From Flavobacteriales bacterium (lineage in GTDB: Bacteria > Bacteroidota > Bacteroidia > Flavobacteriales_F > PHOS-HE28), in contig JAGNUG010000001.1 of the NCBI GenBank assembly GCA_017987115.1, positions 33,405 through 97,404 of the forward strand: 64,000 nucleotides of DNA. The letters are read 5' to 3'. The position numbers and the translations under genes were made by a program. Shown here piece after piece: positions 10,201 through 59,153 of the stretch; position 1 is the stretch's first letter, and each line of letters begins with the position of its first letter. The notes beneath the pieces are model-generated. The model had not been told where the DNA came from, did no database searches, and saw only the letters and a list, made by a program, of their open reading frames with translations.

Positions 10201-11100
10201 TCCGTTCTCCTCACCGGCCCGGTTGCGGATAGTTGGAGCTGGCAGGCTTCAGCGGATCTTACTGCATTGAATGCGCAAAGCACTACTGCAACGCCGGGTA
10301 TTGAAACAACCTATTACGTTGTTGCCACGAATGTTTGCGGCTCCATTACGGACAGTGTTCGTGTGAGCTTGATCACCGTGCAACCTGCAGCTTGGCCGGA
10401 TACCATTGTGTGCCCCGGCATGGAAGTGCAGCTCTTTGCGAACGGTGGTGTGGAATACAGTTGGTCGCCACCGGAAACGTTGAACTATCCGGATACCGCT
10501 TCGCCGGTCGCTGTGGTCTGGGGGCCGATCACCTACAGCATTGAAGTAACCGATGAGTACGGATGCATTGGCAACACCACGCTTTCATTGACCACCTGGC
10601 CATTACCGAATGTGTTGGCAGACCCGGACCAGATCATTGAATGGGGGCATACCGCACAACTGGGTGCCGTTGGCGATGGTCTTCTTGTTTGGGAAACCGT
10701 TGAAACCCTGAGCTGCGATACGTGTGATTCACCCATCGCGAAGCCGGATTCCAGCACGACCTATACCGTTACCGTTACCGATGTGAACGGCTGTAAGAAC
10801 ACCGATGTGGTTACGATATTATTGGATGGCTCGCTTTACGTGCCCAACACCTTTACACCGAACGGCGATGGTGTGAACGACGTGTTCCGCGCATGGGGCA
10901 AAGAGATCAAGACCTACAAACTGTACGTCTTCAACCGCTGGGGCGAGCAGATCTTCTCCACGGAGTCTTTGACCGGTTTTTGGGATGGCACCTACAAAGG
11001 CGTGGACTCACCCATAGACACCTACGTGTGGAAGATCCACGTGAGCGAGATCACCGGGAACCGACGCACGCTGTATGGGCATGTGAATTTGGTGCGGTGA
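7264..11100 (+). CDS. Large secreted SBBP/PKD-domain protein with T9SS type B (gliding-motility-associated) C-terminal sorting domain
   Basis: It has a signal peptide, beta-propeller-like SBBP repeats and a PKD domain (FLWNFGDGGTSTEYLPTHTYTEEGTFTVTL). Repeated Ig-like modules ending in SWSPP follow. The type B CTD motif is YVPNTFTPNGDGVNDVF...NRWGEQIF...GFWDGTYKG...DTYVWKI. Confidence 0.8.
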   Translation: MRATLSIFFLCLVGVGFAAAPVASFTENKGQWPVQVLYRVEFPGGALFVEREAFTYVLRSGGHQHGHGDGAQDAPARAHAYRVHFVGGHAQGSEGRLKQPHYENFFLGNDPTKWGTGCALFGEVLLTDIWPGIDLRFDGRSGLKYEFIVASGADPHLIKLRFEGHDGIVVKDDRLFVRTTAGEMIEEAPVSFYADGSAEEEVLSAFSLKDDLLAFDLHEGTDASRKLIIDPILTFGSYSGSTGDNFGFTATYDATGHLYGGGNVFDIGYPTTVGVLDPIFNGGTCDVGISKWSPDGTTLVWSTYLGGTGDDLPHSLVVNTNNELFVMGSTGSSDMPVTAGCFDPSFNSGTPNFVSSYNYPNGSDIYVAHFNAAATSLIGCTYVGGLGNDGLNTGPLNFNYGDQFRGEIALDANEKPVISTVTASIDMPTSPGAPQAANAGGAHDAYFFRMNAALTAMEWGTYHGGTEDDTGFGVQFDSAGNIFTTGGTQSSNLPTAGSPAAGSFFGSSDGYIARYSPDGSTLLSTTFAGTNNYDQSFLVQLDLQDNVYIVGQTHGAYPVTPGKYAVPNSSQFIHKFSNDLSTSLWSTRIGNGNGNEDISPSAFLVSDCGQIYFSGWGGGTNNVGVPINSTTNGLPTTPGAFQSTTDGSDFYLMVLEPDADALNYATFFGGAVSSEHVDGGTSRFDKNGTVYQAVCAGCGANSDFPTTPGAWSNTNNSFNCNLGVFKFDLAAPNVQIGIAGPNTICFPSDVQFTNTSTGGNTFLWNFGDGGTSTEYLPTHTYTEEGTFTVTLVMSDSYGCSPSDSASITIVSNSGPVANVDPAPIICPGGSTQLNASGGDTYSWSPPTGLSDPTIADPFAAPATTTNYTVVASGICGTDTASVNVIVDIPAGTAMPDPTICIGDAIELSLLSGTVQSWEPDPTLSSTTSQTPTATPLDTTTYYVTIVSDQGCIVTDSITIYVIDGLPEPALVDTAICTGSSVLLTGPVADSWSWQASADLTALNAQSTTATPGIETTYYVVATNVCGSITDSVRVSLITVQPAAWPDTIVCPGMEVQLFANGGVEYSWSPPETLNYPDTASPVAVVWGPITYSIEVTDEYGCIGNTTLSLTTWPLPNVLADPDQIIEWGHTAQLGAVGDGLLVWETVETLSCDTCDSPIAKPDSSTTYTVTVTDVNGCKNTDVVTILLDGSLYVPNTFTPNGDGVNDVFRAWGKEIKTYKLYVFNRWGEQIFSTESLTGFWDGTYKGVDSPIDTYVWKIHVSEITGNRRTLYGHVNLVR

Positions 11101-11232
11101 GGGTTATTAGAACGCGGATGACGTGGAAGGAGGTGATCTGCGCTGATCTGAATTTGTTCTTCGGAGTCCTTTTTGGGAGACATTACCCACGTTCTTAACT
11201 TAATATATTCGGAGACGATTTAGGAATAGACA

Positions 11233-12960
11233 ATGAAGAGTTTAGCACGTGTTCTACTTGTAATATTGGGGCTTACAATGGCTTTTGGTCTCATAGCGCA
11301 ACCAGCTATTCAATGGCAACGGTGTTTTGGAGGTGCAAGTGATGAAAATGAAGGTATCATTCATGAAACCACCGATGGTGGCTACATTATGGCTGGAAAC
11401 TCATACTCTAATGATGGCGATGTATCAGGAGGACATGGTTTGAGAGATGTCTGGGTAGTGAAGCTCTCTTCACTTGGCAATATTGAATGGCAGAGGTGCT
11501 TGGGTGGTTCAGATGAAGATCTCCTCTTGTCCATTGAAGAAGCTGCTGACAGTGGCTATATATTGACAGTGTGGACCCAATCCAATGATGGAGATGTTAC
11601 GGGCTATCACGGTGGAGGTGATGCCTGGATAGTGAAACTATCCTCTGCTGGTGCGTTACAATGGCAGAAGTGTTTAGGTGGTTCAAGCTATGAACAAAGC
11701 AAACCCCTTGAACAAACAAATGATGGCGGCTATATATTGGCGATGTGGACGCTTTCCAATGATGGGGATGTTTTGGGGTTTCATCAAAATTCACAAGGAT
11801 TACAGGATCAACTGGATATTTGGTTGGTGAAGTTGTCTTCCATGGGCGCCATTGAATGGCAACGCTGTTTAGGTGGCACTGGACCTGATTATGCCAACTC
11901 CATTCTGCAAACCCTTGACGGTGGCTACATATTGGCGGGGAGTACAGCATCTGGTGATGGAGATGTTACATGTTATACTGGTTCACAGGATATTTGGGTG
12001 GTTAAGTTGTCGGTAGCTGGCGCTATCGAATGGCAGAGGTGCCTGGGCGGTTCGCTTTCTGATTGGGCGACTATTAAAAATACGGTCGATGGTGGATATG
12101 TTGTTGCGGGACATACCCTTTCCAATGATGGAGATGTAATGGGATATCATGGCGGACAAGATATTTGGGTGATGAAGTTGTCGGCAATGGGCACAATAGA
12201 TTGGCAAAAGTGCTTGGGAGGAACCGGGGCTGAGTATCCATATACCTATCATCAGACTTTGGATGGAGGTTTTATTATCGCGGGGCATACCGATTCAAAC
12301 GATGGAGATGTATCAGGCTACCATGGTGACGAGGATGCGTGGGTCGTAAAATTGTCTTCCACAGGACAGATCCTATGGCAGAAATGCCTTGGAGGTACAG
12401 GCTATGATGGTCTTGAGGCGTTCCAAACACCTGATGGCGGTTACATTGCATCAGGACAGACAAACTCCAATGATGGGGATGTAACAGACAATCATGGAGG
12501 TACAGATATATGGGTGGTGAAACTATCGACCACGGGAGTAATCCAATGGCAGAAATGCTTTGGTGGTCTGGAAAATGAATCAGGAGGTATAATTCAGTCT
12601 ACAGACGGCAGTTATATTGCCATGGGTTATACCGATTCAAACGATGGTGATGTGTCTGGGAATCATGGAGGGAAGGATCTATGGGTAGTTAGGCTAGGTT
12701 CAGACGTGGGTATTACAGATAATGCGCAAGCCATGTTTACGCTTTCCCCGAACCCAGCGAACCATCTGGTAGCACTTAAGCTGCCCAATGCCCACAAGGG
12801 CATTATCGAAATGGTGAATACCCAAGGAGCGCTAGTATTACGAGGCCAAACTGTAGGTGAAATCACTGAGTTGAATATTAGCGAAATGATATCTGGTCTT
12901 TACATGATCACTGTTCGGACGTTGCAGGGACATAGCAGCCAGCGCTTTTTGGTAGAGTAA
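11233..12960 (+). CDS. Secreted beta-propeller repeat protein (11 x ~47-aa repeats) with T9SS type A CTD
   Basis: It has a signal peptide. The repeat unit is DGGYIxAGxTxSNDGDVxGxHGGxDxWVVKLSxxGxIxWQ[RK]CLGGS. The C-terminus carries the LSPNPAN...GLYMITVRT CTD. It is a paralog of the genes at 18919 and 20786. Confidence 0.75.
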   Translation: MKSLARVLLVILGLTMAFGLIAQPAIQWQRCFGGASDENEGIIHETTDGGYIMAGNSYSNDGDVSGGHGLRDVWVVKLSSLGNIEWQRCLGGSDEDLLLSIEEAADSGYILTVWTQSNDGDVTGYHGGGDAWIVKLSSAGALQWQKCLGGSSYEQSKPLEQTNDGGYILAMWTLSNDGDVLGFHQNSQGLQDQLDIWLVKLSSMGAIEWQRCLGGTGPDYANSILQTLDGGYILAGSTASGDGDVTCYTGSQDIWVVKLSVAGAIEWQRCLGGSLSDWATIKNTVDGGYVVAGHTLSNDGDVMGYHGGQDIWVMKLSAMGTIDWQKCLGGTGAEYPYTYHQTLDGGFIIAGHTDSNDGDVSGYHGDEDAWVVKLSSTGQILWQKCLGGTGYDGLEAFQTPDGGYIASGQTNSNDGDVTDNHGGTDIWVVKLSTTGVIQWQKCFGGLENESGGIIQSTDGSYIAMGYTDSNDGDVSGNHGGKDLWVVRLGSDVGITDNAQAMFTLSPNPANHLVALKLPNAHKGIIEMVNTQGALVLRGQTVGEITELNISEMISGLYMITVRTLQGHSSQRFLVE

Positions 12961-30975: not shown

Positions 30976-31053
<78 letters not shown>

Positions 31054-31304: not shown

Positions 31305-34300
31305 TTACGGTTGTATTGAGACCCTGTCGGTATAGATACGCTCACCGGCTGTGACGCGCACGAGGTACATGCCACTGGCAAGACCACCATCCAGAGCTAC
31401 CACATTATTCAAGCGACCGTCCTGTGTAAGGAGCTGCTTGCTTAATATGAGTTTTCCGCTCATGTCCATGATCTCAAAGCTCACGGTCTTGATCTCACTA
31501 TCCAGTGAATTGATCACTACGGTGAGTACCGTCCCTTGGTTCGGATTCGGGTACAAGGCGAGTACGCTACTGGCACTTTCCAACAACACATTTTGTTGTC
31601 CACCTGCAACCATTGTATTGATCGTTACAGTGCAGGACTCTCCGGCCTGGCAATAAACGCCGCCTTTGAACGCCTCTACAGTTACGTCGTATGTGCTACC
31701 CGGAGTTAGTGCAGGCGCTATGGCCGCACCCCATCCCAAGCTTACATAGTACGTAGGTACCACACGAACGATCGGAGAAACCAACTCTGCATTGGTGAAG
31801 GTAAACCGGTACTGCGTTGCACCACCAACAGGGCGTGCATACAAGCGATTTGCGCTATTGTTCACAAAATCACGTGTTACGTTGCAGCTCAGGAACTGAG
31901 GGAAACCAGGTACATCGAACAACTTGGTGGGTGGGCAATTGGCCAACGCTTCGTCCCTTGTGAACCGGCAAGCGGGACCATACGCTCCGGCCACACCATT
32001 CACAACACTGCGCACACGAACGTTGAGTTGTACGCCGTTCGGGATCTGATCCACTGCTGCCCAGTTATTGATCTTGGCATGGCATGTACGCGCTGAGCCG
32101 ATGTTCGCAAAGTTGTCCGATACGTTATGACGACGCTGGCGCACATAGCTGTAGGTACCGTTCGGATCGAAGAACAAGAAGTCGTATCCTGAATCCGCAC
32201 CAGCTGCTCCGCCACCGTTGTAGTCCGCTGCAACAGCAGCATCTTCATTGCACACGATGTACTCACCGTTCTTCCAGAAATACTTATCGCAACTTGTAAA
32301 GAGCAGTTCGTTGGCCGATGGCGGAACGCAGAATGGAACTGCTGCCATGCTTGTGGCTCCGGAAGTAAAGTTATCCGTGTTGTCGATCAGGCGAACTCCA
32401 TCCGAAGTACTCAACACGTAACCTCCATCGGTGATGCCATTGCCTCCTGCATCGGTTACAGTAAGATCGTAGCATCCATCAGCAACTGAGAACGTTGCAA
32501 TTTCCATGGATCCTCCTGGTACATCCGCGAACGGTCCGCCGCTCGCAACTGGGGCTCCACCACCAGCTGGTGTAACTTGGAAAGTGACTTCGCTACCGAA
32601 TGCATCCAGATCGAAGGCGAGTGATAACATGTTGTTTCCCATCACCGCTCCTTGGAATTCGAATGCACCGATATCACGCGTTCCGAACAATGGCAAGTTG
32701 CGTTGATCATTCTCCAGCAACGCTGGATCACCTGTGTTGTAGGCTGCACTACTTGTTGATGCAATTGCTTGCGTTTGCGTAATGCCACCGTTATCCGCCA
32801 ATGCACCCAGACCAGGATCTGTTCCAACAACATTCCCATTCACACCGTCGCTGATACCGGAAGCTCCCGTACCATCTTCGAGCAAGGTGAACATTGCTGA
32901 TACGAACGCACCATTCGCATCCGGACCTGTGCCGGCACCTGTAATGCTGTTATCTGCAATGATCGAACTATTACTATTCAACGTTCCCACCATCACATTC
33001 ACACCACCACCGTTATTATCCGCGCTATTGTTTGCGATCGTGGATGCTAGCAATGTCGCTGTTCCACCTTCAACACTTACACCACCGCCATCGTTGGTGG
33101 CCGTGTTGCCGCTAACCGTGCTGTAGTTCACATCCAACGTACCGGTTCCTGGGCCTCCACCTTGCAGAAAAAGACCACCTCCGTCAAGTGCATTGTTACC
33201 GCTTACTGTAGAACGGGTGATGGTCATGGCTCCTGCATTCGAAGCCCAGAGTCCACCACCTTCATTAACGGCCGTATTGCCGGATGCCGTGCTTGTGATG
33301 AAACTTGTAGTACCGGTTCCACTTACATGCACACCACCACCGTTAATGCCTGCATTGTTTCCCATCAACGTAATGTCAGTAAGTGAAGCTGAACCATTGA
33401 AATTCTCAATGGCACCACCTGCACGAGCACATGAGTTGCCCGATAACATGCTACCCGAAATGGTTACTGAACCACCATCGGTCATTACACCACCACCGTT
33501 ACCGGTGTTGATGGGTGCCGTGTTGTTGGTGATCATTGCACCGTTCTGAATGATGAGCGTTCCACCGATGTTGAAAACACCTCCACCTCCTTGGTCGTTG
33601 CCTGCGTTATTTCCTGCGTTCGCCGTATTGCTATCAACGGTAGTTCCGTCGATGGTCATGCTGCCACTTGCATTCCAAAGGCCACCACCTTCTTGACCCG
33701 CTACGTTGTTAGCGAATGTACCACCGTTCACATTGGTGGTTCCAGTTCCGCTTACGTGAATACCACCACCGTTAACTCCGGCCGTGTTACCATCTGCAAC
33801 AGCGGCTCCGCCAACTGTAGAACTGGTGATCGTTACTGTTCCATTGAAGTTCTCGATGCCACCACCTGCACGAGCGCATGAGTTGCCGGATAAAATGCTA
33901 CCCGAAATGGTCACGGATCCACCATCGGTCATTACACCACCACCGTTACCGGTGTTGATGGGTGCCGTGTTGTTGGTGATCATTGCACCGTTCTGAATGA
34001 TGAGCGTTCCACCAATGTTGAAAACACCTCCACCTCCTTGGTCGTTGCCTGCGTTATTTCCTGCGTTCGCCGTATTGCTATCAACGGTAGTTCCGTCGAT
34101 GGTCATGGTGCCACTTGCATTCCAAAGGCCACCACCTTCTTGACCGGCTACGTTGTTAGCGAATGTACCACCGTTCACATTGGTGGTTCCAGTTCCGCTT
34201 ACGTGAATACCACCACCGTTAACTCCGGCCGTGTTACCATCTGCAACAGCGGCTCCGCCAACTGTAGAACTGCTGATCGTTACTGTTCCATTGAAGTTCT

Positions 34301-36203
34301 CGATGCCACCACCTGCACGAGCGCAAGAGTTGCCAGTAAGTGTGCTTCCGGTAATGGTCACGGATCCACCATCGGTCATTACACCACCACCGTTACCGGT
34401 GTTGATGGGTGCCGTGTTGTTGGTGATCATTGCACCGTTCTGAATGATGAGCGTTCCACCGATGTTGAAAACACCTCCACCTCCTTGGTCGTTCCCTGCG
34501 TTATTTCCTGCGTTCGCCGTATTGCTGTCAACAGTGGTTCCGTCGATGGTCATGGTGCCACTTGCATTCCAAAGGCCACCACCTTCTTGACCGGCTACGT
34601 TGTTAGCGAATGTACCACCGTTCACATTGGTGGTTCCAGTTCCGCTTACGTGAATACCACCACCGTTAACTCCAGCCGTGTTACCATCGCCAGCAACCGC
34701 ACCACCTACTGTTCCTCCAGTAATGGTGACCATGCCACCGAAATTCTCGATACCACCACCGGCGCGAGCGCAAGAATTGGATGAGATCGTGCTACCCGTG
34801 ATGGTTACCGTACCGCCGTCGGTCATTACCCCGCCACCATTACCGAGGTTCATCATGGCCACATTGTTAGTGATCATTGCACCGTTCTGAATGATCAGTG
34901 TTCCACCGATGTTGAATACGCCGCCACCACCTTGGTCATTGTTAGCGTTGCTAGCAGCATTGGCCGTGTTGCTCTCAATGAGCGTTGCATCAATGGTCAT
35001 AATGCCGCTGGCATTCCACAAGCCACCGCCTTCTTGCCCTGCGACATTGTTCTGGAAAGTACCACCGTTCACATTGGTGGCACCAGTACCACTTACGTGT
35101 ATGCCACCTCCGTTGATGCCCGCCGTATTGCCATCAGCGACAAGAGCTCCGCCTACGACAGCGGAACTGATGGTTACAGTGGCATTGTTGTTCTCGATAC
35201 CACCACCTGCGCGAGCACATGAGTTCGAGGCAATGAGGCCACCAAGGATGTTCACCGAACCAGCTACGGCCATTATACCACCACCGTTACCGGCGTTGAT
35301 GGGTGCCAAATTGTTCGTGATCACCGTACCGTTCTGAATGATGGTCGAACCACCGTTCTCGAACACGCCACCACCACCTTGATCGTTACCGGCATTGCTG
35401 CCCGCATTGGCCGTGTTCCCATCGATGGTGCAACCATCAATGGTCATGGTGCTACCTGTGTTATTCCAAACACCACCTCCTTCTTGCCCGGCAGCGTTGT
35501 TGGCAATGGTCACACTATTGAAGACTACTGTTGAAGCCGTGGTAACGTGCAGTCCACCACCGTTACCAGGGTTGGGCGTACCTGCTCCGCCGTCCACATC
35601 GTTTCCGCTCAACGAACCTCCCGTCATGATAAGGGAACCGGATGCGATCTCGATTCCTCCACCAGCACGGTTGGCCGAGTTCCCATCAATAGTACATGCA
35701 GTAATGGTTACTGCACCACCGGCTATGAATAGACCACCACCGCTACCACTCACCCCATTGGCCACACTCGAGGTTATACTGGAATTGCTGAGGTTCAATG
35801 TCGTACTCGTGCTCAGAATAGCTCCGCCATCGATCGCAGTACCCATTGTAAGTTGAACTCCATCAATATTTACCGTCCCTGCGTTGCTAAGGGTGAAGAT
35901 GCGGCTGTTCGAGTTACCGTTCAACGTTGTGTTGATCGTACCATTTCCTGTGATCGTTACATCTTCGCTCACGACCAGCTCGCCGGTCAAGAGTATGATG
36001 GGTACACCATTTGTCGTTCCGTCGAATACGATGTCGTCCGCACCTAGGTTAGCGTTCGCATCAAGCACGGCTTGGCGCAAAGAGCCTGGACCAGAGTCCA
36101 GCGAGTTCATTACCGTAAACGTTGCTGCTGAAGAATTAGAAAGGCCCCATAAGGATAGGGCCGATGTCAACAGAAGATTTCGAAGCGTCCTATTCTGATT
36201 CAT
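31305..36203 (-). CDS. Giant secreted parallel beta-helix repeat protein (about 1630 aa) with T9SS type A CTD
   Basis: It has a signal peptide. Gly/Asn-rich beta-helix turns (GGGIHVSGTG..NNVAGQEGGGLWN..) are organised as 149-aa units repeated at least five times, with near-identical 447-bp DNA copies between about 33090 and 35330. The C-terminus is LALYPNPNQG...GMYLVRV. Confidence 0.8.
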   Translation of the reverse strand: MNQNRTLRNLLLTSALSLWGLSNSSAATFTVMNSLDSGPGSLRQAVLDANANLGADDIVFDGTTNGVPIILLTGELVVSEDVTITGNGTINTTLNGNSNSRIFTLSNAGTVNIDGVQLTMGTAIDGGAILSTSTTLNLSNSSITSSVANGVSGSGGGLFIAGGAVTITACTIDGNSANRAGGGIEIASGSLIMTGGSLSGNDVDGGAGTPNPGNGGGLHVTTASTVVFNSVTIANNAAGQEGGGVWNNTGSTMTIDGCTIDGNTANAGSNAGNDQGGGGVFENGGSTIIQNGTVITNNLAPINAGNGGGIMAVAGSVNILGGLIASNSCARAGGGIENNNATVTISSAVVGGALVADGNTAGINGGGIHVSGTGATNVNGGTFQNNVAGQEGGGLWNASGIMTIDATLIESNTANAASNANNDQGGGGVFNIGGTLIIQNGAMITNNVAMMNLGNGGGVMTDGGTVTITGSTISSNSCARAGGGIENFGGMVTITGGTVGGAVAGDGNTAGVNGGGIHVSGTGTTNVNGGTFANNVAGQEGGGLWNASGTMTIDGTTVDSNTANAGNNAGNDQGGGGVFNIGGTLIIQNGAMITNNTAPINTGNGGGVMTDGGSVTITGSTLTGNSCARAGGGIENFNGTVTISSSTVGGAAVADGNTAGVNGGGIHVSGTGTTNVNGGTFANNVAGQEGGGLWNASGTMTIDGTTVDSNTANAGNNAGNDQGGGGVFNIGGTLIIQNGAMITNNTAPINTGNGGGVMTDGGSVTISGSILSGNSCARAGGGIENFNGTVTITSSTVGGAAVADGNTAGVNGGGIHVSGTGTTNVNGGTFANNVAGQEGGGLWNASGSMTIDGTTVDSNTANAGNNAGNDQGGGGVFNIGGTLIIQNGAMITNNTAPINTGNGGGVMTDGGSVTISGSMLSGNSCARAGGAIENFNGSASLTDITLMGNNAGINGGGVHVSGTGTTSFITSTASGNTAVNEGGGLWASNAGAMTITRSTVSGNNALDGGGLFLQGGGPGTGTLDVNYSTVSGNTATNDGGGVSVEGGTATLLASTIANNSADNNGGGVNVMVGTLNSNSSIIADNSITGAGTGPDANGAFVSAMFTLLEDGTGASGISDGVNGNVVGTDPGLGALADNGGITQTQAIASTSSAAYNTGDPALLENDQRNLPLFGTRDIGAFEFQGAVMGNNMLSLAFDLDAFGSEVTFQVTPAGGGAPVASGGPFADVPGGSMEIATFSVADGCYDLTVTDAGGNGITDGGYVLSTSDGVRLIDNTDNFTSGATSMAAVPFCVPPSANELLFTSCDKYFWKNGEYIVCNEDAAVAADYNGGGAAGADSGYDFLFFDPNGTYSYVRQRRHNVSDNFANIGSARTCHAKINNWAAVDQIPNGVQLNVRVRSVVNGVAGAYGPACRFTRDEALANCPPTKLFDVPGFPQFLSCNVTRDFVNNSANRLYARPVGGATQYRFTFTNAELVSPIVRVVPTYYVSLGWGAAIAPALTPGSTYDVTVEAFKGGVYCQAGESCTVTINTMVAGGQQNVLLESASSVLALYPNPNQGTVLTVVINSLDSEIKTVSFEIMDMSGKLILSKQLLTQDGRLNNVVALDGGLASGMYLVRVTAGERIYTDRVSIQP

Positions 36204-51767: not shown

Positions 51768-52019
51768 CGTTTTTGTTTTAGTCCCCGGCAGAACCGGGGT
51801 GGTTAGGGCCTCTCAACGCCGCCAATTCCAGAAGGTTCAGAACCGCTCCTGGTTATGCCAATTCCGCATATTCGCATACTGCGGAACAGGCCTGTACCAT
51901 GCGGGCAATTCCAGATCCTATGCGGAATCGGAATAGTTTATTCCAGTTCGGAATAATGGGCCGTGTTCGCATGCACATGCCTCTTAAGCATACCTCGTGT
52001 TGAAGTGTCTAGTGGTAAT

Positions 52020-52364
52020 ACTTCAATCTAAGTCGTCCATGACCTCAACATAAGTCGACCCATACTTCAACATAAGGTGACCATGACCTTAACATAAGTC
52101 GCCCCATACTTCAACATAAGGTGACCATGACCTCAACATAAGTCGACCCATACTTCAACATAAGGTGACCATGACCTCAACCTAAGTTGACCCATACTTC
52201 AACATAAGGTGACCACGACCTAAACATAAGTTGCCCTATACTTCAACATAAGGTGACCATGACCTCAACATAAGTCGACCCATACTTCAACATAAGGTGA
52301 CTATGACCTCAACATAAGTTGCCCTATACTTCAACATAAGGTGACCATGACCTAAACCTAAGTA
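52020..52364. repeat. Tandem direct-repeat array: 8 x 44 bp, each made of two related 22-bp half-units (16 x 22 bp)
   Basis: The unit is ACTTCAACATAAGGTGACCATG + ACCTCAACATAAGTCGACCCAT, repeated head-to-tail with only point substitutions. There are no spacers. Stop codons occur in all frames. Confidence 0.9.
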
Positions 52365-52436: not shown

Positions 52437-52754
52437 CTACGCGCTAGGCGGTGCGTCTCCTGCTGGTGGTGGTATGCCCAACGCCTGTTGCCTGCTTTCA
52501 TAGTTGAGCTGTTGCCTGCGTGGGTGTTGCTCCATTAGGAACTCACCGATGTCGCAACCGAACACACGTGCATAGCAGACCGCACTGTGCAAGCCCAGTT
52601 CATGCCGCCCATTTTCCGTTTTGCTGATCACGCTTTGGCAAATACCTACCTCCAGCGCCAAGGCGGTCTGTTTCCAATTATACTGTTTACGCAATTCGTA
52701 CAAACGGGCGCCATACATTTCATTGATCGCTTTCTTGTCTTTTTTAGAGGCCAT
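52437..52754 (-). CDS. XRE-family helix-turn-helix transcriptional regulator
   Basis: The HTH_3 motif is QTALALEVGICQSVISKTENG. The Met at 52754 was chosen. The C-terminal tail is Pro-rich. Confidence 0.65.
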   Translation of the reverse strand: MASKKDKKAINEMYGARLYELRKQYNWKQTALALEVGICQSVISKTENGRHELGLHSAVCYARVFGCDIGEFLMEQHPRRQQLNYESRQQALGIPPPAGDAPPSA

Positions 52755-52997
52755 CTTGGATCTGTGTTCGTAAGGAAAAGGGGCTCCGCGCCAAAGTGGG
52801 TGAAAGGATGAACCTTTTCCCAACTCCCGAAATACCTGTTTATGGGTATTTTTTAGTGCGCGCTATAGAGTAAGGATGAGGTGTGTGGGTTTTGTAAGGG
52901 ATAAAGTACATGGAGTAGACCGCTATTTGCTTTTGCGCAAACCACAAAACGCAAGGCATGTGCCGTGCATTAATATGGTTGGTCTAAGTTTACCAAC

Positions 52998-54659
52998 GTG
53001 ATGACGAAAACTGCCGAGAAACCGAAGCCGAAAGGCAAAACTGCCAAGCAACCAAAAGCCACTGAGCACGCCACGCTCCAGCGTGGCCGCACTGAAAATG
53101 CCGGGCAGGCCGAAGGCCGGGAGCCCGGCGAACCCAGCAACGGTGGTAAGAAGAAAAGGGCCACGCTGGAGCGTGGTGAGCCCAGCAAGAAGAACAATGG
53201 TTCCGCTTTCGAGCAAGCTTTTAAGAACATCGATGATGCGCTCTGGAAGGACCCCGGCTGCACCAGCGAACTGGACTACACCGAGCAGACCAGCTGGATA
53301 CTCTTTTTAAAATACCTCGAAGACCTGGAGGAGACCAAGCAGATGGATGCCGAGTTGCAAGACAAGAAGTATGTGCCCATTATTGCAAGCAGTTTCCGTT
53401 GGCCGGTATGGGCTTGCCCGAAGGACAAGGAAGGAAAGCTGGACCACCACAAAGCCCTGAGCGGAACGGACCTTGTGGAGTTCGTGAACCAGCAGCTCTT
53501 CCCTTACCTGAAGGGCTTCAAGCAGAAGGCCACCGGACCCAACACCATCGAATACAAGATCGGCGAGATCTTCTCGGAGATCAACAACAAGGTGCAGAGC
53601 GGCTACACCCTGCGCGATGTGCTGGACCATGTGGATGCCCTGCACTTCCGCAGCCAGGAGGAGAAGCACGAGCTGAGCCACCTCTACGAGGCCAAGATCA
53701 AGAACATGGGCAATGCCGGGCGCAACGGCGGCGAGTACTACACCCCGCGCCCGCTCATCAAAGCCATTGTGCAAGTGGTGGACCCACAAGTGGGCGAAAC
53801 CGTGTATGACGGTGCCGTGGGCAGCGCGGGCTTCCTGTGCGAGGCCTTCGACCACATGAGCGCCAGCGCCAAGAGCACCAGCGCGCAGAAGACCTTGCAG
53901 GAAAAAACCTTCTACGGCAAGGAGAAGAAGAGCCTGGCCTATGTGATCGGCATCATGAACATGATCCTGCACGGCATCGAGGCGCCCAACATCATCCACA
54001 CCAACACGCTCAGCGAGAACCTCGGCGACATACAGCCGAAGGACCAATACGATGTGGTGCTGGCCAACCCGCCCTTCGGTGGCAAGGAGCGGCCGGAAGT
54101 GCAGCAGAACTTCCCGATCAAGACGGGCGAGACCGCCTTCCTCTTCCTACAGCACTTCATCAAAAGCCTGAAGGCGGGCGGCCGCGCGGGCATCGTGATC
54201 AAGAACACCTTCTTGAGCAACACCGACAACGCCAGCATCAGCTTGCGGCGCAAGTTGCTGGAGGACTGCGACCTGCACACCATCCTGGACATGCCCAGCG
54301 GCACCTTCCAAGGGGCGGGCGTAAAGACCGTGGTGCTCTTTTTTGAGAAAGGGAAGAAGACGCGGAAGACTTGGTACTACCAGCTGGACCCCGGCCGCAA
54401 CATGGGCAAGACCAACCCGCTGAACGAGGCGGACATGGCCGAGTTCGTAAAGCTGGCGAAGACCAAGGGCGATAGCGCGAACAGTTGGTGTGTGAACACG
54501 AGCGAGGTGAACACGGATACCTACGACCTCAGTGCGAAGAACCCGAACGGACCGGAGGAAGCCCCGCTGCGCGACCCTAAGACCATCCTGCACGAAATGC
54601 GCGACCTGGATGCCAAGACCAAGGGCTTGTTGGACAACATCATGACGCTGCTGAAATGA
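52998..54659 (+). CDS. hsdM: Type I restriction-modification system methyltransferase subunit HsdM, with a Lys-rich REP-derived N-terminal extension
   Basis: It is an N6-adenine MTase with motif I GSAGFL and motif IV NPPFGGKE. HsdM-type TRD-contact regions are present (YYTPRPLIKAIV). The first 65 aa or so have no HsdM counterpart and contain translated REP palindromes. Confidence 0.85.
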   Translation: MMTKTAEKPKPKGKTAKQPKATEHATLQRGRTENAGQAEGREPGEPSNGGKKKRATLERGEPSKKNNGSAFEQAFKNIDDALWKDPGCTSELDYTEQTSWILFLKYLEDLEETKQMDAELQDKKYVPIIASSFRWPVWACPKDKEGKLDHHKALSGTDLVEFVNQQLFPYLKGFKQKATGPNTIEYKIGEIFSEINNKVQSGYTLRDVLDHVDALHFRSQEEKHELSHLYEAKIKNMGNAGRNGGEYYTPRPLIKAIVQVVDPQVGETVYDGAVGSAGFLCEAFDHMSASAKSTSAQKTLQEKTFYGKEKKSLAYVIGIMNMILHGIEAPNIIHTNTLSENLGDIQPKDQYDVVLANPPFGGKERPEVQQNFPIKTGETAFLFLQHFIKSLKAGGRAGIVIKNTFLSNTDNASISLRRKLLEDCDLHTILDMPSGTFQGAGVKTVVLFFEKGKKTRKTWYYQLDPGRNMGKTNPLNEADMAEFVKLAKTKGDSANSWCVNTSEVNTDTYDLSAKNPNGPEEAPLRDPKTILHEMRDLDAKTKGLLDNIMTLLK

Positions 54660-55753
54660 GAACCGCACATCCTTGGCCATTGGAAAGATTCGGCGAGGTA
54701 CTTGAGATCCGAAACGGTCGCAACCAACGTGAGGTTGAGAACGCTTCCGGACCTTATCCGATTTACGGCAGTGGTGGCGTCATGGGCTACGCCTCCGACT
54801 ATATCTGCGAAGCCAATACGACCATCATTGGACGTAAAGGCTCGATCAATAACCCGCTTTATGTTGAAGAGCGGTTCTGGACAGTTGACACTGCATTTGG
54901 CCTACATCACAAAGAGCGGCTTCATCCCCGCTTTTTGTATTACTACTGTTTGCATTATGATTTCAGCAAGCACAATCGCGGGACAACGATTCCAAGTCTG
55001 GTAAAGACAGAGTTACTGGAGATACGAATGCCCATTCCGCCCCTCCCCGAACAACAGCGGATCGTGGGGAAGTTGGATGCGGCCTTTGCAGCGCTCACGG
55101 AGGCGCAGGCCCACGTGGAGCGCAACCGGGCCAACGCGCGGGAGCTGTTCGAGAGCTATTTGAATGGGGTGCGCAACGAAATATCTTCAAATTGGCCTGA
55201 GAAATCTTTAGGGGAAGTTTGTGAGTATCAGAATGGAAAAGCACATGAAAAATGCATTGACCCAAATGGAAAATACATTGTCATAAACTCTAAATTCGTT
55301 TCTACTGAAGGCAAAAAATTTAAAAGGTCAAAACATAACTTGTTGCCGTTGGTACCTAACGATATCGTAATGGTCCTAAGTGACGTGCCGAATGGCAGAG
55401 CTTTAGCTAAATGCTTTTTAGTAGATAAGGCCAATACATATACATTGAATCAGCGAATATGCGTATTTCGTTCAAGCCATTTTGACACTAACTTTCTATT
55501 CTTTCAGCTAAACCGCAACAAGCACTTTTTAGCTTTCAACAACGGTGAGAATCAAACCAATATGCGGTTGAATCAGGTTCTTAGTTGCCCATTATTTGTT
55601 CCGCCTATTGCTGAGCAGAAAGAATTTGAATCAAGGCTTCGTAAAATGTCGGAAAAAGCTGAACACCTCGAAACCACCTACGCCCAAAAGCTGAGCGAGC
55701 TGGAGGAGTTGAAGAAAAGTATATTGGGTGCGGCGTTTAGGGGGGAGTTATGA
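54656..55753 (+). CDS. hsdS: Type I R-M specificity subunit HsdS
   Basis: Two target-recognition domains are separated by conserved helical spacers (LPEQQRIVGKLDAAFAALTEAQ, LFVPPIAEQKEFE). It is coupled with 4-nt overlaps to both hsdM and the downstream ORF. Confidence 0.8.
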   Translation: MRTAHPWPLERFGEVLEIRNGRNQREVENASGPYPIYGSGGVMGYASDYICEANTTIIGRKGSINNPLYVEERFWTVDTAFGLHHKERLHPRFLYYYCLHYDFSKHNRGTTIPSLVKTELLEIRMPIPPLPEQQRIVGKLDAAFAALTEAQAHVERNRANARELFESYLNGVRNEISSNWPEKSLGEVCEYQNGKAHEKCIDPNGKYIVINSKFVSTEGKKFKRSKHNLLPLVPNDIVMVLSDVPNGRALAKCFLVDKANTYTLNQRICVFRSSHFDTNFLFFQLNRNKHFLAFNNGENQTNMRLNQVLSCPLFVPPIAEQKEFESRLRKMSEKAEHLETTYAQKLSELEELKKSILGAAFRGEL

Positions 55754-56823
55754 AGCAGTACATTTACACTGGGCTCGCCGGGCTCCAGCCCGGCTCTTCA
55801 GCCACTACTGGCAATAGTCGGTTCGCCACGCTCCAGCGTGGCTCTTCAATACAGGCCAAGCTAGAGCTTGGCGAACCCAGCAATAGTGCCAAGCTGGAGC
55901 TTGGCGAACCCAGTGTTGGTGCAGTTGGTAATAGTGCCAAGCTGGAGCTTGGCGAACCCAGTGTTGGTGCAGTTGGTAATAGTGCCAAGCTGGAGCTTGG
56001 CGAGCCCAGTGGTGGTGCAGTTGGTAGTAGTGCCAAGCTGGAGCTTGGCGAACCCAGTGGTGGTGCAGCTGGTAATAGTGCCAAGCTGGAGCTTGGCGAG
56101 CCCAGTGGGGAGCCCAGTGGTGAATTGAAGTGGACGGACCGGGGTTATATGCCACACGTCGATGGCCAACATTTGATCCAACACGTTAGCTATCATCTAG
56201 CGGATAGTTTGCCGAAGGAGGCGCTGGAGCAGATGAGTGTTCAATTGAAAAGCCTACCTCCGAAGTTGCGCGATGCGGAGAAGGAAAAACGTATTGCGGC
56301 GTACATCGATGCAGGAAAAGGCAGTTGTGTGCTGCGTGTTCCGGAGATCGCTGAGATGGTACAGAACGCATTCCTGTTGTTCCATGGTGAGCGGTACATC
56401 TTGCATGCGTGGTGTGTGATGCCTAACCATGTGCATGTCCTCTTTCAACCAGTGCAAGGTTGGTCAATGAGCAAGATCGTGGCTTCGTGGAAGTCCTATA
56501 CCGGGCGGCGCATCAGTGAGTATTTGAAATCCACTGGGCTCGCCGGGCTCCCGGCCTATGGCCTGCCCGGCTCTTCAGCTACTGCTAACAACAGTCGGTA
56601 CGCGCTCCAGCGTGGCACTTCCTCTTCTAAACACTCCCCGATCTGGCATCGCGAGTACTGGGACCGCTATATTCGGGACCGCACGCATTATTCGAACGTT
56701 GTGAAATACATCCACGAGAATCCGGTGAAGGCCAAGTTGGTATCGAGGCCGGAGGATTGGAAATGGTCGTCTGCATTTGCTGGGCTCGCCACTCACCAGC
56801 GTGGCTCTTCCTCTGAACAATGA
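55750..56823 (+). CDS. rayT: REP-associated tyrosine transposase (RayT, IS200/IS605 Y1 family) with REP-derived in-frame segments
   Basis: The HuH motif is HAWCVMPNHVHVLF. The C-terminal motif WHREYWDRYIRDRTHYSNVVKYIHENPVKAKLV is typical of RayT/TnpA_REP. The core probably starts at the Met at 56149. The first 133 codons are translated REP repeats. Confidence 0.75.
   Translation: MKQYIYTGLAGLQPGSSATTGNSRFATLQRGSSIQAKLELGEPSNSAKLELGEPSVGAVGNSAKLELGEPSVGAVGNSAKLELGEPSGGAVGSSAKLELGEPSGGAAGNSAKLELGEPSGEPSGELKWTDRGYMPHVDGQHLIQHVSYHLADSLPKEALEQMSVQLKSLPPKLRDAEKEKRIAAYIDAGKGSCVLRVPEIAEMVQNAFLLFHGERYILHAWCVMPNHVHVLFQPVQGWSMSKIVASWKSYTGRRISEYLKSTGLAGLPAYGLPGSSATANNSRYALQRGTSSSKHSPIWHREYWDRYIRDRTHYSNVVKYIHENPVKAKLVSRPEDWKWSSAFAGLATHQRGSSSEQ
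55769..56105. repeat. REP/BIME-like palindrome cluster: composite 80-bp element plus 6 tandem 48-bp units carrying GCCAAGCTGGAGCTTGGC
   Basis: The 18-bp palindromes fit GCCNNGCTSSAGCNNGGC. Instances are GCCGGGCTCCAGCCCGGC at 55777, GCCACGCTCCAGCGTGGC at 55825, and six GCCAAGCT(GG/AG)AGCTTGGC copies with 48-bp period. Further copies lie at 53070, 53160, about 56535-56612, 56780-56810 and 57210. Confidence 0.85.
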
Positions 56824-59153
56824 ACGAAGCCGAAACACGCGCCGAACTGATCGACCCCGCACTACTTGCGGCGGGCTGGGGCGTTGTGGAGGGCAGTCGC
56901 GTGCGGCGTGAGTACATTATTACCCTGGGCCGTTTGCAGGGCGCTGCTGGCAAACGCAACACCCCGGAGATCGCCGACTACGTGCTGGAATACAAAGGCC
57001 GTATGGTCGCCGTGATAGAGGCAAAGAAGGCAAGTCTACCGGTAAGTCAAGGATTGGGCCAAGCCAAGAAGTATGCAGATAAATTGAGGGTGCGGCACGC
57101 ATACAGCACCAACGGCAAAGGCATCTACGCCTTGGACATGCTGGTAGGCCGTGAGGGTGACATTGCAGGATGGCCTACACCGGATGAGTTGTGGAAGTTG
57201 GTACAACCGGCCACGCTGGAGCGCGGCCAGCCCAACGTTAATTGGACGGACCGTTTCGGTCTTGTACCCTTCGAAGACAAAAGCGGTAGCTGGCAACCGC
57301 GCTACTACCAAGACCTCGCCATTCAACGCGTGTTGGATAAGATCGCAGAGGGTAAGGATCGCATCTTGCTTACGCTTGCTACCGGCACGGGCAAAACGGC
57401 GATCGCATTCCAGATCGCTTGGAAATTATTCGAGAGCCGATGGAATTTGAAACGCGATGGCGAACGTCGTCCGCGCATTCTGTTTTTAGCGGATCGGAAT
57501 ATTCTTGCCAACCAAGCATTCAATTCATTCAGCGCATTTCCGGAGGATGCCTTGGTGCGCATCGATCCGGCGAGCATCAAGAAGAAAGGCAAGGTGCCGA
57601 CCAACGGCAGCATCTTCTTTACCATCTTCCAAACGTTCATGTCAGGACCGGATGATACACCCTACTTCGGTGATTATCCAGTTGACTTCTTTGATCTGAT
57701 CATCATCGATGAGTGCCACCGCGGTGGTGCCAATGATGAAAGCTCGTGGCGCGATATCCTCACCTATTTCAAACCGGCAGTGCAACTGGGCCTCACCGCA
57801 ACACCCAAGCGCGACCAGAATGTGGATACCTACAAGTACTTCGGTGATCCGGTGTATGTGTATTCGCTCAAAGAAGGGATCAACGACGGGTACCTAACGC
57901 CATTCAAAGTGCGGCAGATCACCACCACGTTGGATGAATACACCTACACGAATGATGATGGGGTGGAAGAAGGCGAGGCCGAACAAGGGCGTACCTACAG
58001 CGAAGCAGATTTCAACAAGATCATCGAGATCAAGGAACGGGAAGCCTATCGCGTAAGGACCTTCATGGACATGATCGATCAGCGGCAGAAAACGTTGGTG
58101 TTCTGTGCCACACAATTGCACGCCTTGGCGGTGCGCGATCTGATCAACCAATACAAGACCAGCCCGGACCCGCACTACTGCGAGCGGGTTACAGCGGATG
58201 ACGGCAAGATCGGCGAACAACACCTGCGCAATTTTCAGGACAACGAACACACCATCCCTACCATCCTCACCACCAGTCAAAAACTGAGCACCGGTGTTGA
58301 TGCCCGCAACATCCGCAACATCGTATTGATGCGGCCGGTGAACAGTATGATCGAGTTCAAGCAGATCGTTGGTCGCGGTACGCGCTTGTATGATGGCAAG
58401 GACTATTTCACCATCTATGATTTCGTTAAAGCGCATCAGCATTTCCAAGACCCTGAATGGGATGGTGAGCCGCTGGATCCGGGTCCTCCACGGGAGCCGA
58501 AGATCAGCGCACCGTACCCGCCTCCCGATCCGAATGACCAATTGGTCGATCCACCAGGAGAGGTGGAGCGCAAGATCCTACGTATAAAACTTGCAGATGG
58601 CAAGGAGCGGCAGATCCAGCACACATCAAAAACATCGTTCTGGAGTCCGGATGGTACACCGATCAGTGCACCGGAATTCATCAAGTTGCTATTTGGAGAA
58701 TTGCCGCAATTGTTCAAGAATGAAGATGAGCTACGCGCGTTGTGGAGCCGGCCGGATACCCGCAAAAAGTTGTTGGAAGAACTCGGTGAGAAAGGCTTCC
58801 CAATGAATCAATTGGAAGACCTGCAACGCTTGATCGATGCAGAGAAAAGCGACCTCTTCGATGTACTCGCCTACGTGGCTTACAACAATGCCACGCAACT
58901 GCGCACGGAGCGAGCAAACGCAGCCCGCAACCACTTCGATACCTATGCGGACAAGCAACGCGCATTCCTCGATTTTGTACTACAGCATTACGTGCGGGAC
59001 GGAGTAAAGGAACTGGACCAAGAGAAACTACCGCAACTGCTCTTGCTCAAATACAAGACGCTACCCGATGCCACAAAAGAGCTCGGCGACATAGCAGCCA
59101 TCCGCGAAACCTTCTTCGGGTTCCAGCAGTGGTTGTATGGGGGAGTAGGGTAA
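56820..59153 (+). CDS. hsdR: Type I restriction enzyme R subunit HsdR
   Basis: The N-terminal nuclease-domain start (MNEAETRAELIDPALLAAGW) is canonical. SF2 helicase motifs are LATGTGKT (I) and DECHRG (II). An ATLERG palindrome insertion lies at 57210. Confidence 0.85.
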   Translation: MNEAETRAELIDPALLAAGWGVVEGSRVRREYIITLGRLQGAAGKRNTPEIADYVLEYKGRMVAVIEAKKASLPVSQGLGQAKKYADKLRVRHAYSTNGKGIYALDMLVGREGDIAGWPTPDELWKLVQPATLERGQPNVNWTDRFGLVPFEDKSGSWQPRYYQDLAIQRVLDKIAEGKDRILLTLATGTGKTAIAFQIAWKLFESRWNLKRDGERRPRILFLADRNILANQAFNSFSAFPEDALVRIDPASIKKKGKVPTNGSIFFTIFQTFMSGPDDTPYFGDYPVDFFDLIIIDECHRGGANDESSWRDILTYFKPAVQLGLTATPKRDQNVDTYKYFGDPVYVYSLKEGINDGYLTPFKVRQITTTLDEYTYTNDDGVEEGEAEQGRTYSEADFNKIIEIKEREAYRVRTFMDMIDQRQKTLVFCATQLHALAVRDLINQYKTSPDPHYCERVTADDGKIGEQHLRNFQDNEHTIPTILTTSQKLSTGVDARNIRNIVLMRPVNSMIEFKQIVGRGTRLYDGKDYFTIYDFVKAHQHFQDPEWDGEPLDPGPPREPKISAPYPPPDPNDQLVDPPGEVERKILRIKLADGKERQIQHTSKTSFWSPDGTPISAPEFIKLLFGELPQLFKNEDELRALWSRPDTRKKLLEELGEKGFPMNQLEDLQRLIDAEKSDLFDVLAYVAYNNATQLRTERANAARNHFDTYADKQRAFLDFVLQHYVRDGVKELDQEKLPQLLLLKYKTLPDATKELGDIAAIRETFFGFQQWLYGGVG

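Follow-up and report, generated by a model that had tools for sequence, protein, structure and literature searches.

Genes for REP-associated tyrosine transposases (TnpAREP, RAYT or RayT) that hold repetitive extragenic palindromes (REPs) without a break in the frame, in the interval from the HUH motif to the catalytic tyrosine, have been called unique to subclass 2.4 of the family (Quentin et al. 2018, BMC Genomics 19:475, PMC6006769). Here we describe rayT, a gene in a type I restriction-modification operon on a 64,000-nucleotide (nt) stretch of Flavobacteriales DNA (contig JAGNUG010000001.1; hereafter the window, to which coordinates refer unless another locus is named). Its product carries a 38-residue segment in the same interval. 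The segment is probably a worn head-to-tail pair of the transposase's own REPs, an in-frame, tolerated and recurrent insertion in a predicted disordered loop between helix αC and strand β4.

Subclass 2.4 (RAYT group 4) resembles the present case in that cognate REPs lie in the transposase open reading frame (ORF), in the HUH-Tyr interval, with the frame intact and with variable length and sequence, and were read as a tolerated peripheral loop. There are, however, clear differences. In subclass 2.4 the insert occupies the β3/αC loop, in the window RayT the αC/β4 loop, and the β3-to-αC stretch of the latter is short (QPVQGW). The REPs of subclass 2.4 have a GT[AG]G foot as opposed to GARCCCAG in the window, its proteins are without the Ser-containing C-terminal extension that is represented here by WKWSSA, and no restriction-modification context is reported for them. 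The preliminary description of the locus, made by inspection of the DNA, considered a transposase with its own substrate inside its ORF unusual. That judgement calls for some qualification, since the arrangement has been reported as a hallmark of subclass 2.4, although in another loop.

Subclass 2.6 (RAYT group 5), mostly found in Bacteroidetes, has the motifs NH[LIV]H, WQ and YIH[QN]NP and a C-terminal 'SS' domain. The window protein has NHVH, WH (W[HQ] in its clade), YIHENP and WKWSSA at the corresponding positions, and on this comparison, which is of motifs only, the present clade looks like subclass 2.6. About 21 extra residues between αC and β4 also appear to be common to the two, and the flanking hairpins of subclass 2.6 are 'atypical' and non-GTAG, some being listed with the GCTGG feet and TCC loops that occur in the window. 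The extra residues were described, however, as a protein domain that might aid REP recognition and not as REP DNA. The αC/β4 region was placed beside the REP-recognition surface of PDB entry 4er8, the Escherichia coli TnpAREP (Quentin et al. 2018, PMC6006769).

The E. coli enzyme (PDB code 4ER8) has the Y1 HUH fold, its HUH motif and tyrosine align with those of the window RayT, and its gene is flanked by REPs in both orientations. It has few residues at the position where the window RayT has 40. The REPs of E. coli are GTAG-footed, strictly extragenic and dispersed in hundreds, whereas those found here are confined to the operon and would mostly be translated; the hairpin foot in the window lacks the GT[AG]G guide tetranucleotide. 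The E. coli TnpAREP and its REPtron are said to have been treated by Ton-Hoang and by Messing, both in 2012.

In-frame intragenic REPs have been catalogued, and REPs that overlap the ends of RAYT ORFs noted (Di Nocera et al. 2013, PMC3733652). In common with our case these REPs, and the Rickettsia palindromic elements cited there, occur in frame as singles, dimers and clusters, encode some 10-80 amino acids (aa) and are tolerated in loops and linkers. They are scattered over unrelated host genes, often for DNA repair, whereas here the transposase itself and its operon partners are the recipients and a single loop is hit repeatedly across phyla. Full-text literature searches for an association of RayT with type I restriction-modification returned nothing relevant. 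Restriction is not mentioned in Quentin 2018 or Corneloup 2021, and in Bertels 2017 the word occurs solely in a reference title. In-frame REPs in tnpAREP genes are, then, already known; what is new is an apparent second subclass, the different loop, the strength of the recurrence and of the phase filter, and the embedding in a restriction-modification operon.

A REP doublet within the rayT reading frame

The product of the rayT ORF is identical to a database protein (P0001) that carries the NCBI name 'MAG: transposase [Flavobacteriales bacterium]' (MAG, metagenome-assembled genome). Its identity as a REP-associated tyrosine transposase of the Y1 HUH type, as first proposed for the gene, is supported by profile and model comparisons. 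The protein scores 89.8 bits against NCBIfam NF047646 (REP_Tyr_transpos), above the cut-off of 80, and 20.9 bits against NF033573 (IS200), below the cut-off of 55. An AlphaFold2 (AF2) model built from 120 homologs has a mean predicted local distance difference test (pLDDT) score of 83, mostly above 87 in the core, and a predicted template modelling (pTM) score of 0.79. The top Foldseek match of this model is 4er8_A, with E = 1.1e-6 and a template modelling (TM) score of 0.58 normalised by target.

Among the 120 homologs H102 of the HUH motif is invariant and H104 at least 90% conserved, as is the putative catalytic Tyr195. An asparagine four residues after the catalytic tyrosine (N119) is the TnpAREP rule (Quentin et al. 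2018, PMC6006769), and the window protein conforms with Y195-I-H-E-N199-P, in which N199 and P200 are invariant. The C-terminal DW.WSS motif is present as WKWSSA, with W212 invariant and Ser215 and Ser216 at least 90% conserved. The window protein, used as reference row of the alignment, has the expected residue at all 26 positions that are invariant in the family.

The segment (KSTGLAGL...SSSKHSP, nt 56527-56640) lies between SWKSYTGRRISEYL and IWHREYWDRYIRD and does split the RayT motifs, as the preliminary description had it. In the model it follows helix αC (residues 115-136) and precedes strand β4 (residues 174-182), with pLDDT below 50 at residues 146-167, and the loop is predicted to be disordered. 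Between the aligned blocks there are 58 residues in the window RayT compared to 21 in E. coli TnpAREP.

The REP unit of this family, GCC-NNN-C-WGGA-G-nnn-GGC, is a hairpin with 7 bp in the stem and 4 nt in the loop, and after it comes the foot GARCCCAG (CTGGGYTC in the other orientation). There are 12 copies with no more than one defect in the window, all within 53070-57235. The rayT gene is flanked by eight perfect hairpins on the 5' side and one imperfect hairpin on the 3' side, the arrangement of a REPtron. One composite doublet in the 5' flank (coordinates of all features are in Table 1) is a source-like copy of the insert: the DNA of the segment matches it at 69 of 76 ungapped columns. 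The local alignment score is 90, as against 15.5 ± 2.6 in 1000 shuffles (z = 28.6) and a best score of 27 among 2312 other segments of the window, which bears out the initial view of a diverged copy. Two indels, each a multiple of three in length, separate them: the insert has gained 12 nt in the loop of its first hairpin and lost 3 nt from the left arm of the second. The frame runs on through the internal doublet, which lies between the HUH motif and the catalytic tyrosine of an intact RayT. Stem 1 is kept around the enlarged loop whilst stem 2 is partly lost; both hairpins are decayed.

A homolog of about 80% identity (P0002) has the same expanded first hairpin (loop ...AGLAGLPASGLPGSS...FATLQRG) with the second hairpin still intact. 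The third copy that had been noted at the C-terminus is also genuine. It supplies the final 15 codons and agrees with the second unit of the doublet in 25 of 28 positions. The decay of the internal and 3' hairpins suggests that the intragenic copies of the window are old. The homolog of about 80% identity has inherited the doublet together with its 12-nt expansion, which implies that the gene has long persisted with the insert.

Recurrence in orthologs and the codon-phase filter

In all 4994 RayT homologs were detected, the best 120 of which were used for protein loop comparison. The DNA set comprises 84 non-redundant rayT loci from at least eight phyla, and state changes were counted on a quick neighbour-joining tree of the RayT core. 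The αC/β4 loop ranges from 12 to 74 aa in the best 120 homologs and mostly reads as REP peptides, which match the N- or C-terminal REP peptides of the same protein (ATLERGEPS, AGLEPGGP, GNANLPIG and ANREIGVP). A perfect hairpin is present in the loop at 41 of 77 loci. With one defect allowed, 47 of 75 orthologs, from at least eight phyla, have one to five REPs each, in forward (24) or reverse (23) orientation, and the core tree requires at least 14 changes of state.

About 20 orthologs have loops of 11-12 aa; in the REP-free relatives a 12-aa loop follows a 22-residue helix, compared to 40 aa in the window. The shortest loop in an ortholog is 4 aa, and elsewhere inserts reach 78 aa with cores that are equally conserved. 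Might the 12-aa loops (e.g. RRDSGEGPGAPV) be relics of REPs? Alignment to the flank REPs of their own loci gave p = 0.1-0.9 and the idea was discarded; being unlike these REPs, the short loops are treated as native and REP-free. Their existence indicates that the window segment is an insertion and not a native linker, a 40-aa linker of unrelated DNA being the finding that would have spoken against the early description. Taken with the recurrence, the REP-free state suggests that REPs have entered this site, multiplied there and left it many times. The segment has the attributes of an intragenic palindromic repeat: it belongs to a repeat family, is in frame, has empty homologous sites and lies in a predicted disordered loop.

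The hairpins themselves are under constraint as nucleic acid. The fixed skeleton is matched 465 times near rayT at the 84 loci, and in 393 of these matches the variable 3 bp are perfectly complementary, for which the chance expectation is 1/64. There are 16 different stem triplets, ACG, GGG and AAG in the window and AAT, ATT and GAT among those elsewhere, and their covariation points to selection on nucleic acid, not on protein. In the encoded hexapeptides residues 2 and 5 co-vary as reverse-complement codons (T/R, G/P, K/L, N/I, I/N and D/I). Within the first kb upstream of rayT there are 1.5-2.8 hairpins per kb, and within the first kb downstream 1.0-1.4. Over hsdM and hsdS, in loci embedded in restriction-modification operons, the figure is 0.5-0.6, and at distances of 5 kb and more it is approximately zero, for a combined flank length of about 500 kb.

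Hairpins begin on the first base of a codon in 54 of 57 loop copies, 132 of the 161 copies in 5' flanks and 65 of the 83 in 3' flanks. In this benign phase the REP reads Ala-x-(Leu/Gln/Arg)-x-x-Gly. Spacings between neighbouring rayT-linked hairpins are multiples of three in 146 of 165 cases, as opposed to 16 of 29 for dispersed copies on metagenome contigs, which served as control and show no frame bias (25:14:21). The phase bias therefore belongs to the rayT-linked copies and not to the REP itself.

The dispersed copies were found by a contig scan, which detected the same REP skeleton as doublets in other metagenomes without a RayT or Hsd gene nearby. They are convergent, with stem AGG or ACG, 61-63 nt apart, and occur on many contigs of a few metagenomes (JGI samples Ga0268264, Ga0068860 and Ga0134122; loci L110, L119, L122, L130, L131, L139, L145, L147, L151, L153, L154, L158 and L160). 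The thought that they lie inside long ORFs was abandoned: the frames are stop-poor, the contigs look G+C-rich and the hairpins are mostly near frame ends. Their position at frame ends and the absence of frame bias mark them as ordinary intergenic REPINs. In some organisms, then, REPs of this type are also present in the ordinary dispersed form.

Origin of the insert and alternative explanations

We suggest that the REP pair would have been copied as one composite unit, from the 5' flanking doublet or into it, and that the copy landed in the stretch coding for the loop between helix αC and strand β4 of the Y1 HUH nuclease. As the loop is predicted to be disordered and tolerates extra residues, the fold and the HUH and Tyr catalytic residues would be kept. 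The insertions that survive would be those of a multiple of 3 nt, free of stops, in the benign phase and in disordered loops or linkers. With rayT coupled between hsdS and hsdR, a frameshift would also uncouple hsdR, making the phase filter doubly strict. Short-range copying of REPs into nearby DNA may underlie the gain, multiplication, inversion and loss at one loop in the orthologs, and the same process may have put REPs into the HsdM and HsdR linkers of the operon. By analogy with E. coli TnpAREP and IS200/IS605, RayT would catalyse this copying, with hairpins cut and then rejoined while the DNA is single-stranded. The insert in the window would be an old product of the REP copying process; the window RayT may still be active, to judge by the conserved residues. 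To our knowledge the mechanism of REP spread is unsolved, and we know of no case where a RayT has been watched moving a REP in a cell.

Several observations weigh against this account. In many loops the hairpins are still perfect although synonymous divergence is saturated, which implies either ongoing re-insertion or conversion or else selection on the hairpin, the latter in favour of a functional role. With the αC/β4 region adjoining the REP-recognition surface (Quentin et al.), the loop may not be functionally neutral. The 5' doublet as single-stranded DNA forms two clean 7-bp hairpins (z = -4.2 relative to shuffles); the fold of the internal copy is no better than that of shuffled sequence (z = -1.2). 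No REP hairpin with one defect or fewer occurs in the remaining 58 kb or so of the window, and REPs confined to the operon, with degraded internal and 3' hairpins, give no sign of recent REP mobility in this genome. The openness of the rayT frame could be maintained by the coupling to hsdR alone. A target-site rule could not be derived from filled and empty HsdR sites, where the junctions are not clean ('PPKDGK' versus a REPIN plus 'SK', with a third, shorter state). In support of retained function, the RayT core is under strong purifying selection, with proportions of nonsynonymous (pN) and synonymous (pS) differences of 0.07-0.15 and 0.62-0.84 relative to four to five relatives and a ratio of substitution rates (dN/dS) of about 0.06 where computable, although these comparisons are pairwise and would be compatible with constraint having lately been lost in the lineage of the window itself.

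Does the hairpin serve the gene that carries it? RayT might bind or nick a hairpin in its own gene or mRNA and so limit itself and the coupled hsdR, or the gene might keep a 'reference copy' of the substrate, allowing enzyme and REP to evolve in step. A REP with the stem triplet of its own lineage is found at this single site in over 60% of orthologs, which together with the persistence of perfect hairpins and the proximity to the recognition surface would suit such a cis-element, and the rayT-hsdR coupling would allow an internal hairpin to tune output of the restriction subunit. However, some 28 of the 75 orthologs have no recognisable loop REP and are otherwise intact, copy number (0-5), orientation and exact position in the loop all vary, and the copies in the window are decayed to the point of folding like shuffled sequence. 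Similar inserts in the unrelated linkers of HsdR and HsdM fit generic tolerance better than a dedicated site. Taking its two variants together, we regard a functional cis-element as distinctly unlikely.

The window RayT might also be a relic, inactivated by the insertion or otherwise, with a frame that is open only for ribosomes to reach the hsdR start. The degraded hairpins and the lack of REPs outside the operon in the 64 kb, which leaves no sign of current activity, are in keeping with this, and the ATGA coupling provides a reason for an open frame that is independent of RayT. We nonetheless judge it very unlikely. The HUH motif, the tyrosine and all invariant family positions are in place, the core shows the low dN/dS given above, the homolog of about 80% identity implies long persistence with the doublet, and orthologs with inserts of up to 78 aa are equally conserved. 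The preliminary description had left the choice between a self-inactivated element and a tolerated loop insertion. The intact ORF and motifs, the excess of pS over pN, the low-confidence loop and the presence of REPs at this site in most orthologs tell against the former and favour the latter.

The view that the DNA palindromes are incidental, and that selection at the protein level has kept a native linker or peptide repeat of low complexity, is scarcely credible: the peptides are rich in Gly, Pro, Ala and Ser as in many natural linkers and the family is longer here than E. coli TnpAREP, but residues 2 and 5 co-vary as reverse-complement codons, both DNA orientations occur, elements are also found in non-coding flanks and as dispersed doublets without frame bias, and REP-free orthologs exist.

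The tolerated insertion of RayT's own REPs has consequences beyond this gene. REPs can exist as translated sequence under a strict codon-phase filter, and beyond the single RayT subclass reported. Filled and empty sites at three places, the αC/β4 loop of RayT and two linkers of HsdR, form a natural comparison set, and as close relatives differ in the orientation and number of their copies, both comparison and experiment could be used to test the chemistry of insertion and how far it reaches locally.

The restriction-modification operon and other features of the window

Four ORFs stand in a row on the plus strand in the order hsdM-hsdS-rayT-hsdR, with 4-nt overlaps between neighbours throughout (Table 1). 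The ATG of the rayT ORF overlaps the hsdS stop, and its TGA the hsdR ATG, in both cases as ATGA. Pfam and PADLOC identify the HsdM, HsdS and HsdR domains of a type I restriction-modification operon on this single strand. No PADLOC model matches RayT, and the idea that it is a known defence accessory was dropped.

Table 1. Positions of the operon genes, RayT motifs and REPs in the window
Feature	Coordinates	Strand	Basis
hsdM, type I methyltransferase subunit	52998..54659	+	Pfam HsdM_N, N6_Mtase, Eco57I
Perfect REP hairpin GCCACGC-TCCA-GCGTGGC, reverse orientation, in frame in hsdM 5' extension, reads ATLQRG	53070..53087	+	
REP, forward orientation, one defect, with GAGCCCAG tail, in frame in hsdM 5' extension, reads ATLERGEPS	53160..53185	+	
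hsdS, specificity subunit; 4-nt overlaps with hsdM and the rayT ORF	54656..55753	+	Pfam Methylase_S
rayT ORF, 357 aa	55750..56823	+	Pfam Y1_Tnp
5' composite REP doublet, two reverse-orientation hairpins, 55777-55794 (stem GGG) and 55825-55842 (stem ACG), 48-nt register	55769..55847	+	
Six forward-orientation REPs, GCCAAGC-TGGA-GCTTGGC + GARCCCAG, five in a 48-nt tandem array, in frame, read AKLELGEPS	55855..56108	+	
Conserved RayT core, LKWTDRGY...WKWSSA; TTG at 56125 a possible internal start	56125..56775	+	Alignments, Pfam Y1_Tnp, NCBIfam NF047646, AF2, Foldseek
HUH motif, H102-V-H104 of NHVHVL (56425-56442)	56428..56436	+	Homolog alignment; aligns with EHMHCI of 4er8
Decayed in-frame REP doublet in αC/β4 loop, encodes most of KSTGLAGLPAYGLPGSSATANNSRYALQRGTSS	56534..56621	+	Alignment to doublet, folding, AF2
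Putative catalytic Tyr codon, Y195 of KYIHENP	56707..56709	+	At least 90% conserved; aligns with DYIYINP of 4er8
3' REP, reverse orientation, one stem mismatch and one loop change, encodes C-terminal AGLATHQRGSS	56780..56810	+	
hsdR, type I restriction subunit, EcoEI-type C-terminus	56820..59153	+	Pfam ResIII, EcoEI_R_C, HSDR_N; PADLOC REase_I 2.7e-136
REP, forward orientation, one stem defect, in frame in HsdR linker after DELWK, reads ATLERGQP	57210..57235	+	

The gene order hsdM-hsdS-rayT-hsdR on one strand recurs, across many phyla, at 38 of the 84 loci, a count based on tblastn searches with the Hsd proteins of the window, by which other restriction-modification families beside 'stand-alone' RayTs would be missed. 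At 27 of 32 embedded loci the rayT frame crosses 3-279 nt of 3' REP DNA and ends in an ATGA overlap with the hsdR start, and at 17 of 27 the rayT frame has its earliest start codon in overlap with the hsdS stop. This layout suggests that rayT is translationally coupled to hsdR. RayT and HsdR distances correlate (r = 0.72, Mantel p ≤ 0.0005), as do the identities of RayT and HsdM to their counterparts in the window (r = 0.92), which indicates that the operon travels as a unit. The notion that hsdM-hsdS is a swappable cassette flanked by REPs, by analogy with the attC sites of integrons, was rejected, there being no sign of swapping in these values (r = 0.92 for HsdM and RayT identity, 0.72-0.73 for HsdR). 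Annotated plasmid examples of RayT are limited to one distant match of 25% identity.

The hairpins, too, stay in frame throughout the operon. On these grounds the RayT clade could be not a free REPtron but a fixed fourth cistron of an EcoEI-type operon that spreads horizontally, with a role for the HUH nuclease and its hairpins in the system, an idea that we think unlikely but worth stating. If it holds, the roles may lie in the HsdR:HsdMS ratio during establishment in a new host, in the processing of single-stranded DNA or in movement of the operon, and the REP in the αC/β4 loop, beside the REP-binding surface, may be part of such control. An effect of nuclease or hairpins on expression of the restriction subunit would amount to a new accessory layer of type I restriction-modification. 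Were there no such effect, rayT would be a clear example of a selfish gene whose translational coupling within an addictive operon makes it difficult to remove.

The partners of rayT have in-frame REPs of their own. In HsdR there are two hot spots. The first, after DELWK at about aa 125, is used in Flavobacteriales, the window included (57210-57235), and holds one to four units; the window REP is missing from HsdR orthologs outside the Flavobacteriales. The second, after FQTFMSGP at about aa 270, is used in Acidobacteriota, Chloroflexota and Lentisphaerota. Examples from the two hot spots are L001 (11245-11290 of that locus), L013 (HsdR aa ~125-190) and L004 (11691-11750), with further inserts at L026, L033, L036, L038, L050, L051, L055 and L082. 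For the HsdM position and for both HsdR linkers, filled and empty relatives are found. In hsdM codons 1 to about 70 are a non-conserved extension that holds REPs, homologs aligning from about residue 69 of the window protein onwards. As there is no start codon nearer to the HsdM_N domain, the extension (52998-53200, GTG start) may be translated. It has two or three in-frame REP units, ATLQRG, a degenerate AGQAEGREPGEPS and ATLERGEPS.

Some of the related loci depart from the common layout. The closest relative with a long contig (L001) has DUF4145, DUF4357 and Tis1_ImmP-like genes between hsdS and rayT (8095-10004), with a REP pair between the DUF4145 and DUF4357 genes, inside a called 39-aa ORF. 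One MAG (MFD01299.bin.3.148; loci L080 and L065) has two RayT copies, one in a restriction-modification operon and one stand-alone, and at L080 the rayT frame is open for about 990 nt beyond the core, into hsdR. At L040 (about 10633-12931) the similarity of HsdR is lost after FGEYS and unrelated sequence follows, probably a frameshift or pseudogene in this Acidobacteriota MAG.

Upstream of hsdM in the window there is a 22/44-nt tandem array (52018-52363; about 15 x 22 nt, consensus TAAGTCGACCATGACCTCAACA), adjoined by a divergent 128-aa ORF on the minus strand (52437-52823) with the appearance of a helix-turn-helix regulator. The array and this ORF might be the controller region of the operon. 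The REP does not correspond to a known RNA family: at the gathering threshold the single Rfam match in the window is the tRNA gene at 30978-31051. Further along, at 33394-35508, lies a large tandem repeat with a period of 447 nt (4.7 copies, 84% matches, zero indels), which probably encodes the repeated domains of a big protein.

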